Source: Escherichia coli (GTDB lineage: Bacteria > Pseudomonadota > Gammaproteobacteria > Enterobacterales > Enterobacteriaceae). From it: a stretch of 64,000 nt of DNA. How positions within the stretch are numbered: the first letter of the stretch is position 1; each line of letters starts with the position of its first letter. A program made the translations under genes and the position numbers. The DNA is taken from NCBI RefSeq assembly GCF_003334815.1, contig NZ_QOWO01000016.1, one strand, 5' to 3'. Positions 28,211 to 29,466 of the stretch are shown one piece after another. The notes below the pieces were generated by a model. That model was given only the letters and a program-made list of their open reading frames with translations. It did not search any database and was not told the DNA's origin.

Positions 28211-28552
28211 ATGAAAATGCATAACGATCCTCATTCCTGGTCTGACTTACTTGAATTGTTACAGAGCTGGTGGCGTGGAGACACACCGCTGGGCGCAGTA
28301 ATTATGTCGATCGTTATGGCTGGCTTGCGCATTGCCTATTTTGGCGGTGGTGGTGGCTGGAAGCGAAAAACGCTCGAGATTTTGCTCTGCGGCGCTCTGA
28401 CGCTGACTTTTGCATCCGCTCTTGAGTATGTCGGATGGCCTAAATCGCTTTCTGTTGCCATTGGTGGTGGCGTTGGGTTGATCGGTGTCGATGCTATTCG
28501 TGGGGCTGCAATGAGAGTAATCGGTAACAAGTTTGGTGGCTCTAAGGAGTAA
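28211..28552 (+). CDS. Holin (dual-start MKM motif)
   Basis: About 113 aa with hydrophobic helices and a charged C-terminus; GGAGGTG upstream of ATG; sits immediately before the endolysin. Confidence 0.6.
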   Translation: MKMHNDPHSWSDLLELLQSWWRGDTPLGAVIMSIVMAGLRIAYFGGGGGWKRKTLEILLCGALTLTFASALEYVGWPKSLSVAIGGGVGLIGVDAIRGAAMRVIGNKFGGSKE

Positions 28553-28555
28553 TTT

Positions 28556-29032
28556 ATGCAGGTACTAAATTCCCAGCGTAAAGCTTTCCTGGATATGGTG
28601 GCATGGTCAGAAGGAACGGATAACGGGCGACAACCGACACGTAACCACGGTTATGACGTTATTGTCGGTGGCGAACTCTTCACTGATTACTCCGATCACC
28701 CTCGCAAACTTGTCACGCTAAACCCGAAACTCAAATCAACAGCTGCAGGCCGTTATCAACTTCTTTCACGTTGGTGGGATGCTTACCGTAAGCAGCTTGG
28801 CCTGAAAGACTTCTCTCCCAAAAGTCAGGACGCTGTGGCATTGCAGCAGATTAAAGAGCGTGGCGCTTTGCCGATGATTGACCGCGGTGATATTCGTCAG
28901 GCAATCGACCGTTGCAGCAATATCTGGGCTTCACTGCCGGGCGCTGGTTATGGTCAGTTCGAGCATAAGGCTGACAACCTTATTGCAAAATTCAAAGAAG
29001 CTGGCGGAACGATCAGAGAGATTGAGGTATGA
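28556..29032 (+). CDS. Endolysin, lambda R-like lytic transglycosylase
   Basis: 158 aa; near-identical over its length to lambda R as recalled ([22 protein letters not shown]...). Confidence 0.85.
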
Positions 29033-29466
29033 GCAGAGTAACCGCGATTATCTCTGCTCTGGTTATCTGCATCATCGTCTGCCTGTCATGGGCGGTTAAT
29101 CATTACCGTGATAACGCCATCACTTACAAAAAGCAGCGTGATAAGGCCGCATCCATTATTACTGACATGCAGAAGCGTCAACGTGATGTAGCAGAACTCG
29201 ACGCCAGATACACAAAGGAGCTTGCTGATGCTAACGCGACTATCGAAAGTCTCCGTGCTGATGTTTCTGCTGGTCGTAAGCGCCTGCAAGTCGCCGCCAC
29301 CTGTGCAAAGTCAACGACCGGAGCCAGCAGCATGGGCGATGGAGAAAGCCCAAGACTTACAGCAGATGCTGAACTCAATTATTACCGTCTCAGAAGTGGA
29401 ATCGACAGGATAACCGCGCAGGTTAACTACCTGCAGGAATACATCAGGACGCAATGCCTGAAATGA
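29029..29466 (+). CDS. i-spanin Rz
   Basis: 145 aa with N-terminal TM and coiled-coil; overlaps the endolysin stop. Confidence 0.75.
29222..29413 (+). CDS. o-spanin Rz1 (embedded in Rz, +1 frame)
   Basis: 63 aa frame inside Rz with a lipobox (VVSAC) and proline-rich mature region. Confidence 0.6.

Follow-up and report, generated by a model that had tools for sequence, protein, structure and literature searches.

Does the lysis cassette at positions 28211-29466 of the window, the whole 64,000-nucleotide stretch of DNA that was analysed, work in the same way as the S-R-Rz/Rz1 cassette of phage lambda? The original prediction singled out two gene-overlap strategies here: a holin gene with a dual start that yields both holin and antiholin, and an outer-membrane spanin gene, Rz1, embedded in the gene for its partner Rz. 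We analysed the genes of the cassette and the RNA structures upstream of them by comparison with lambda and with closer relatives.

The cassette and its prophage setting

The cassette and its upstream elements comprise the following features, all on the + strand.

28094-28123, + strand: Rho-independent terminator hairpin and U-tract, 88 nt upstream of the holin gene
28184-28204, + strand: hairpin over the holin Shine-Dalgarno (SD) site, CACUUCCG-AUAAC-CGGAGGUG, a predicted fold
28211-28552, + strand: holin gene, long form, 113 aa, beginning Met1-Lys2-Met3; putative antiholin
28217-28552, + strand: holin gene, short form, 111 aa from Met3; putative active holin
28556-29032, + strand: endolysin, 158 aa, a lambda R-type lytic transglycosylase
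29029-29466, + strand: Rz, the i-spanin, 145 aa, with an N-terminal transmembrane segment and Cys92 and Cys143
29215-29220, + strand: Rz1 Shine-Dalgarno site AAGGAG, 7 nt before ATG 29228, by direct sequence reading
29228-29413, + strand: Rz1, the o-spanin, 61 aa, nested in the +1 frame of Rz

Lambda has the same gene order, a holin of the same class I family (TIGR01594, PF05106) and, in its S105/S107 dual-start holin, the same M-K-M start. The holin and endolysin genes overlap in lambda, whereas here they are 3 nt apart; the start of Rz overlaps the endolysin stop (ATGA). Unlike in lambda, no bor gene lies downstream of the cassette.

Upstream of the cassette are a Q-type antiterminator gene (26796-27548), an ORF for an 80-aa Cys-rich protein and the terminator. 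Although a consensus terminator scan made no call at 28094-28123, direct folding shows the hairpin clearly (-19.6 kcal/mol, z = -4.85, with none of 200 shuffles equally stable), and SfV carries an annotated terminator at the equivalent position. By analogy with lambda this is presumably a tR'-type terminator that Q-modified polymerase would read through. Genes for an HNH endonuclease, a P27-type small terminase, a large terminase, an HK97-like capsid protein and a tail sheath follow downstream. Because this late-gene context is accompanied in the window by an integrase, a repressor, a flanking tRNA-Leu and REP elements, we assign the region to an SfV-like prophage in an enterobacterial chromosome. 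SfV-type phages have the same architecture (HNH endonuclease, P27-type small terminase, HK97-like head and contractile tail).

Five E. coli chromosomes have regions that match the entire cassette at 98.2% identity, and at least 80% of its length is covered in 193 genomes. No phage record spans more than 73% of it. The cassette is a mosaic in which SfV-type holin DNA gives way, from about 19 nt into R, to R-Rz-Rz1 of the HK140/HK97 type. It is a different mosaic from the HK phages themselves, because their cassettes carry a lambda-type S holin. Positions 28211-29466 are a standard lambda-type lysis cassette of an SfV-like lambdoid prophage, and its sequences and features are already known.

The holin passes the TIGR01594 cutoff of 55.05 bits ('phage holin, lambda family') with a score of 135, matches PF05106 over model positions 1-99 of 99 (5.2e-28) and matches phrog_126 ('holin/anti-holin', 1.8e-40). 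WP_000781785.1, which is encoded by a prophage of E. coli strain 135 and annotated as 'phage holin, lambda family', is 100% identical to it. Identity to the holins of Shigella phages SfV, SfII and SfIV and of coliphage mEp460 is 89-97%, a range that for these four applies to the holin core from about residue 18, and identity to those of Salmonella SW-37, Fels-1/ST64B, Yersinia YeP1 and Serratia OS31 is 48-81%. Alignment to lambda S, which had been proposed as a check, gives an identity of only 27%; the alignment is distant because the holin is of the SfV/Fels-1 subtype. The Fels-1/ST64B holin shares with the one studied here its subfamily, its MKMH start and an SD-burying hairpin, with about 58% identity over residues 1-78, but the endolysin and Rz of those phages differ from those in the window.

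Hydropathy gives the holin three hydrophobic segments (about residues 26-47, 54-76 and 79-101) and a C-terminal tail that is basic (net charge +2), the pattern expected of class I. Its N-terminal tail of about 25 residues is acidic, with net charge -3 in the short form and -2 in the long form, whereas the tail of lambda S has about 8 residues and a charge of -1 or 0. The gene lies in the late operon, with Q upstream and terminase downstream, and directly precedes an endolysin gene that encodes no secretion signal. On its sequence the protein is a class I holin of the lambda family, and it would be expected to form holes in the membrane.

The endolysin shares 94% identity with lambda R and matches the lambda lysozyme structure PDB 1AM7 with E = 4e-101; RefSeq names it GH24/GH104. 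Direct reading finds Glu19, which we take to be the catalytic residue, in the motif AWSEGT. The N-terminal residues read as polar, with no signal or SAR segment apparent, as would be expected with a canonical large-hole holin and not with a pinholin/SAR system.

The spanin genes

Rz matches PF03245 (2.2e-36) and phrog_13 (4.7e-73) and is 97% identical to HK140 Rz, 96% to HK75 Rz and, in the alignment that the original prediction had called for, 63% to lambda Rz. Compared with the lambda protein, there is hardly any change in residues 1-27, which take in the hydrophobic segment. The alignment places Cys92 and Cys143 opposite lambda C99 and C152, in two invariant columns, and they could serve as the periplasmic Cys needed for homodimer disulfides.

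The open frame of Rz1 begins at 29222, 193 nt from the start of Rz, and is therefore in the +1 frame; as had been claimed, the gene lies wholly inside Rz (29228-29413 within 29029-29466). In lambda, too, Rz1 is embedded in Rz in this frame. The embedded layout and its position match those of the HK97-family spanins, from which the proteins differ by few substitutions.

The position of the Rz1 start needs correction. The gene had been placed at 29222..29413; its end stands, but its start moves by 6 bases, from TTG 29222 to ATG 29228. TTG 29222 is the earliest possible start in the open frame and would give a 63-aa precursor, but it lies only 1 nt after AAGGAG, the sole SD-like site, whereas ATG 29228 lies 7 nt after it. 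The annotated HK75 Rz1, with which lambda Rz1 aligns, is the same 61-aa product and starts at the ATG. From this SD spacing and the HK75 annotation we take the gene to be 29228-29413, and translation almost certainly starts at ATG 29228; initiation at the TTG is very improbable. The mature lipoprotein would be identical whichever start is used.

An embedded frame could also be open by chance, with the spanin function encoded elsewhere. The length of the ORF was rejected as support for Rz1: when the codons of Rz were permuted synonymously, 24% of the permutations contained a Met-initiated +1 ORF of 61 codons or more. The lipoprotein signal is the discriminating feature. A basic n-region, hydrophobic core and lipobox Cys occurred together in none of 5,000 permutations and none of 5,000 uniform synonymous resamplings. 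In Rz1 this signal consists of a 19-residue signal peptide with Arg4 and Lys7 in its n-region, followed by the lipobox VSAC with Cys20 (codon 29285-29287) and Lys at +2, and it satisfies the pattern [LVI][ASTVI][GAS]C with no Asp at +2. From the Lys at +2, Rz1 is predicted to sort to the outer membrane.

The lipobox had been read as VVSAC, and the ORF indeed reads ...LLVVSAC-K, with the PF06085 model (2.7e-20) beginning exactly at Cys20; Rz1 also matches phrog_3198 (4e-29). Its identity is 98% to the Rz1 annotated in HK75 and, in the alignment to the lambda protein proposed earlier, 41% to lambda Rz1. The original prediction depended on a signal peptidase II site being kept in related phages, and all 47 related Rz genes, which include several sequence types, carry a +1 lipoprotein ORF with a lipobox (VVGC, VSAC, SVGC or VSGC, with SVGC in nine loci). 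The residue at +2 in these 47 genes is T, K, A, S or G and never Asp.

Rz1 occupies the fractional interval 0.45-0.88 of Rz, and embedded o-spanins typically span from 0.4-0.5 to 0.9-1 (PMC6139136). The published 'HK97' family of embedded o-spanins lists HK97, HK140, HK75, HK022 and P22 (Kongari et al. 2018, PMC6139136), and Rz1 belongs to this family. Against the signal statistics, the PF06085 match, the conservation in 47 of 47 genes and the published family, a chance open frame is so improbable that we give it virtually no weight.

Lambda Rz1 has Cys29 and a pentaproline, whereas the Rz1 studied here has neither and so carries no second Cys. Spanin function in lambda needs Rz C152 or Rz1 C29 (PMC6139136, PMC5295617), and the loss should be tolerated because Rz keeps the equivalent of lambda C152. 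We regard it as practically certain that this is a functional-looking holin, endolysin and embedded-spanin cassette that works as in lambda.

The two holin starts and the predicted upstream hairpin

As the original prediction stated, the holin begins MKMH: the ORF opens ATG AAA ATG CAT at 28211, with ATG AAA ATG at 28211-28219. There is a stop upstream of Met1 and no in-frame stop between Met1 and Met3. An in-frame GTG at 28202 was considered as a third start (MGIMKMH) and rejected, as it lies inside the SD site and the hairpin.

The arrangement had been called the classic dual start, which is correct for the motif and its presence in distant relatives but does not describe most close relatives, which have a single start. 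Among the distant relatives, the holins of SW-37 and Fels-1 begin MKMH, that of YeP1 MRMH and that of OS31 MRMP; the exchange of K for R preserves the positive charge. The Fels-1 holin record is annotated 'Dual start motif'.

For close relatives we compared N-termini at the DNA level, because gene callers pick Met1 or Met3 arbitrarily. An earlier census that used an exact internal motif had returned 12% dual-start, a figure that is biased because in 46 of the 76 dual-start loci the search motif occurs in a variant form. When a degenerate motif neutral to the N-terminus was used instead, 22 of 80 contigs among the IMG/VR matches listed were dual-start and 58 (~72%) single-start, counts that include redundant contigs and are not a population estimate.

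The single-start alleles are mostly of the SfV type. In SfV, SfII, SfIV and mEp460 the leader and first ~17 codons are replaced by another 5' holin module with a single start (MPHNPNTW... in place of MKMH), preceded by an in-frame TAA or an out-of-frame ATG. Rarer single-start alleles are point variants in 5' regions that are otherwise of the window type: ATA-AAA-ATG at three loci (L025, L026 and L117) and the one-A-shorter ATGAAATG at three others (L007, L052 and L053), in which the first ATG is out of frame because of the missing A. Met1 has been lost independently by an ATG-to-ATA change, by contraction of the A-run and by allele replacement. Met3 is the sole start retained in all of the relatives compared (SfV-type, ATA-AAA-ATG and ATGAAATG alleles). 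The high share of single-start alleles among the close relatives listed indicates that the Met1 form is dispensable. A constant Met3 and a repeatedly lost Met1 are what the lambda model predicts, in which the Met3 product would be the essential holin and the Met1 product a dispensable modulator.

The same distribution could arise if the cassette is real but its dual start has no function, such that Met3 alone matters or the 113-aa form is a further active holin, and MKM is a neutral relic. The predominance of single-start contigs and the occurrence of point variants within window-type 5' regions are compatible with such a relic, and SfI, SfII, SfIV and SfV lyse without the dual-start motif (PMC3851460). 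The N-terminal tail is also long and acidic, so that one extra Lys may be diluted and matter less for insertion of the first transmembrane segment. However, M-[K/R]-M recurs across Escherichia, Salmonella, Yersinia and Serratia in holins of 48-81% identity with its charge kept, and ATGAAAATG is retained across at least four diverged 5' contexts that differ in the leader and at synonymous sites within the first codons. Moreover, the 8 nt between the strong SD and Met1 are an optimal spacing, whereas the 14 nt to Met3 are not, and for this reason Met1 is very likely used when the hairpin opens. A neutral relic is therefore unlikely in our judgement, although it deserves more weight than the alternatives considered for Rz1. 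The dual-start call is well supported by these comparisons, and we consider it probable that translation initiates at both codons and that the longer form has an inhibitory role.

The SD site, GGAGGUG (28198-28204), lies at -13 to -7 from the first ATG and forms the 3' arm of a predicted 8-bp hairpin. This hairpin appears in both the minimum-free-energy and the centroid structures, with the 56-nt fold at -16.6 kcal/mol (z = -3.0). All 24 distinct 5' variants, including single-start ones, fold a hairpin that pairs the SD, with inner stems that differ between variants (UUCCG/CGGAG, UCCGA/UCGGA, CUGCUG/CAGC-AG, CGC/GCG and CCG/CGG). For each of the eight leader classes, the hairpin is more stable than 96.5-99.6% of shuffles of the upstream part, and the leaders of YeP1, OS31 and Fels-1 are predicted likewise to bury a G-rich SD. 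RNAalifold found no consensus structure on a MAFFT alignment of 19 hairpin variants, because indels in the inner stem misalign the arms; our support for the hairpin therefore comes from the individual folds and the shuffles.

In lambda, access to the SD of Met1 (GGGGG, -12 to -7) is governed by a stem-loop that extends from -21 to -7 (bioRxiv 10.1101/2025.05.14.654169). In both phages the SD lies at about -13 to -7, within an upstream hairpin that ends at -7. The hairpin here is therefore positionally equivalent, and the predicted fold would be an analogue of the lambda sdi stem-loop. Its presence in single-start alleles as well suggests that its primary role may be a general damping of translation and not start choice.

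Proposed lysis pathway and allelic variation

The gene structures, family memberships, motif conservation, lipobox and predicted hairpin described above can be placed in the lambda paradigm, from which we infer the steps of read-through, use of both starts, inhibition by the long form, lipoprotein processing and membrane fusion. Q-modified RNA polymerase would pass the terminator at 28094-28123 and transcribe the four lysis genes. The hairpin at 28184-28204 would presumably throttle initiation on the holin mRNA and split it between Met1 (28211) and Met3 (28217). Of the two products, the one of 111 aa would make the holes, as a class I holin with three membrane segments, and the one of 113 aa, which has one more positive charge at its N-terminus, would delay triggering as an antiholin. 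Once triggered, the holin would free the soluble R-type transglycosylase from the cytoplasm to degrade the peptidoglycan, after which the outer membrane would be removed by a spanin complex formed by inner-membrane-anchored Rz and the outer-membrane lipoprotein Rz1. As a whole, a late lysis cassette of an SfV-like prophage that operates like lambda S-R-Rz/Rz1 is very likely.

The relevance of the locus is mostly one of annotation, in that the window holds an apparently intact lysis module of an SfV-like prophage. Two gaps became apparent. Rz1 is unannotated in the RefSeq records of near-identical (93-98%) cassettes, and holin start sites are called inconsistently between records.

The variation at the 5' end of the holin gene suggests a more speculative idea. 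Tentatively, the first ~17 codons of this holin family and the 5' leader could be an exchangeable 'timing module' that exists, in holins that are near-identical elsewhere, as dual- and single-start alleles in E. coli and Shigella prophages, of which the dual-start ones would produce an antiholin. Single-start alleles might then have come from replacement of the module, from an ATG-to-ATA change or from loss of one A in ATGAAAATG, an origin that we put forward with reserve. It is equally conjectural that the SD-burying hairpin has been kept in all alleles through compensatory changes. If this is true, the sdi-type hairpin would be mainly a translational throttle and not a selector of the start site, and if the alleles really differ in lysis timing, they would provide a natural allelic series for asking what antiholins do. 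A polymorphism of the antiholin start within one holin subfamily, together with a conserved SD-sequestering hairpin, may thus be mildly useful for studies of lysis timing.

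Prophage backbone and host flanks

Taken together, the backbone genes from the integrase through the tape measure indicate an SfV-like temperate myovirus, and the tRNA gene and the four REP-derived naRNA4 copies in the window mark host chromosomal DNA on the prophage flanks.

9290-9376, minus strand: tRNA-Leu(CAG)
9516-9598: naRNA4 element, one copy
12717-13940: integrase
14104-15891: Abi-alpha-like abortive-infection protein of 595 aa, adjoining the integrase (phrog_1841, 2e-70)
20297-20923, minus strand: CI/LexA-like repressor
30360-30710: HNH endonuclease
31327-33060: large terminase
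35138-36343: HK97-type major head protein
38527-40023: tail sheath
40790-42625: tape measure
59292-59571: naRNA4 elements, three in tandem

Annotation of the lysis genes in related records

Lysis genes are annotated differently from one related record to another. Rz1 is not annotated in the RefSeq/PGAP records of the near-identical (93-98%) cassettes on three E. coli chromosomes (L005, L006 and L007), the same records that do annotate the holin, the endolysin and a 'lysis protein' corresponding to Rz. In the record of mEp460_4F5 the holin is annotated as a 140-aa protein with an N-terminal extension that crosses a terminator-like hairpin; this start is clearly wrong. The holin start is placed at the second Met in the records of YeP1, OS31 and SfIV.

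Around the two holin start codons of the window, we also noted a weak AU-rich hairpin (UUAUG/CAUAA, 28209-28224) that could put the first AUG in the stem and the second in the loop. This hairpin is probably not meaningful, because it is not kept among holin variants that have CAC as the fourth codon.

The annotated Rz/Rz1 layouts of SfV (2303-2852 of locus L212) and SfIV (2297-2849 of locus L213) differ from the embedded layout of the window. At 393 nt, the Rz annotated in both phages is short; its start falls inside the endolysin gene R, and the annotated 'Rz1' extends beyond the end of Rz. The difference may come from a frameshift or from an artefact of annotation in the two records.

Two small ORFs beside the lysis genes

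Two further ORFs lie next to the lysis genes.

27837-28079, plus strand: Cys-rich ORF of 80 aa (phrog_7682, 7e-60)
29502-29777, plus strand: ORF of 91 aa (phrog_34701, 2e-54)

The 91-aa ORF, the N-terminal half of which is hydrophobic, has Rz directly 5' of it. Its counterpart in HK140 is gp68; the HK140-type Rz/Rz1 block is accompanied by this ORF, and the HK140 DNA match extends into it.

The 80-aa ORF, downstream of the Q antiterminator gene and upstream of the holin gene, contains four CxxC-like pairs and has a weak FmdB zinc-ribbon match. Directly 3' of it is a strong terminator (28094-28123; -19.6 kcal/mol, z = -4.85), and E. coli strain 135 keeps a counterpart of the ORF (WP_001306866.1). 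This ORF is a candidate moron, which may be expressed from the late promoter region.
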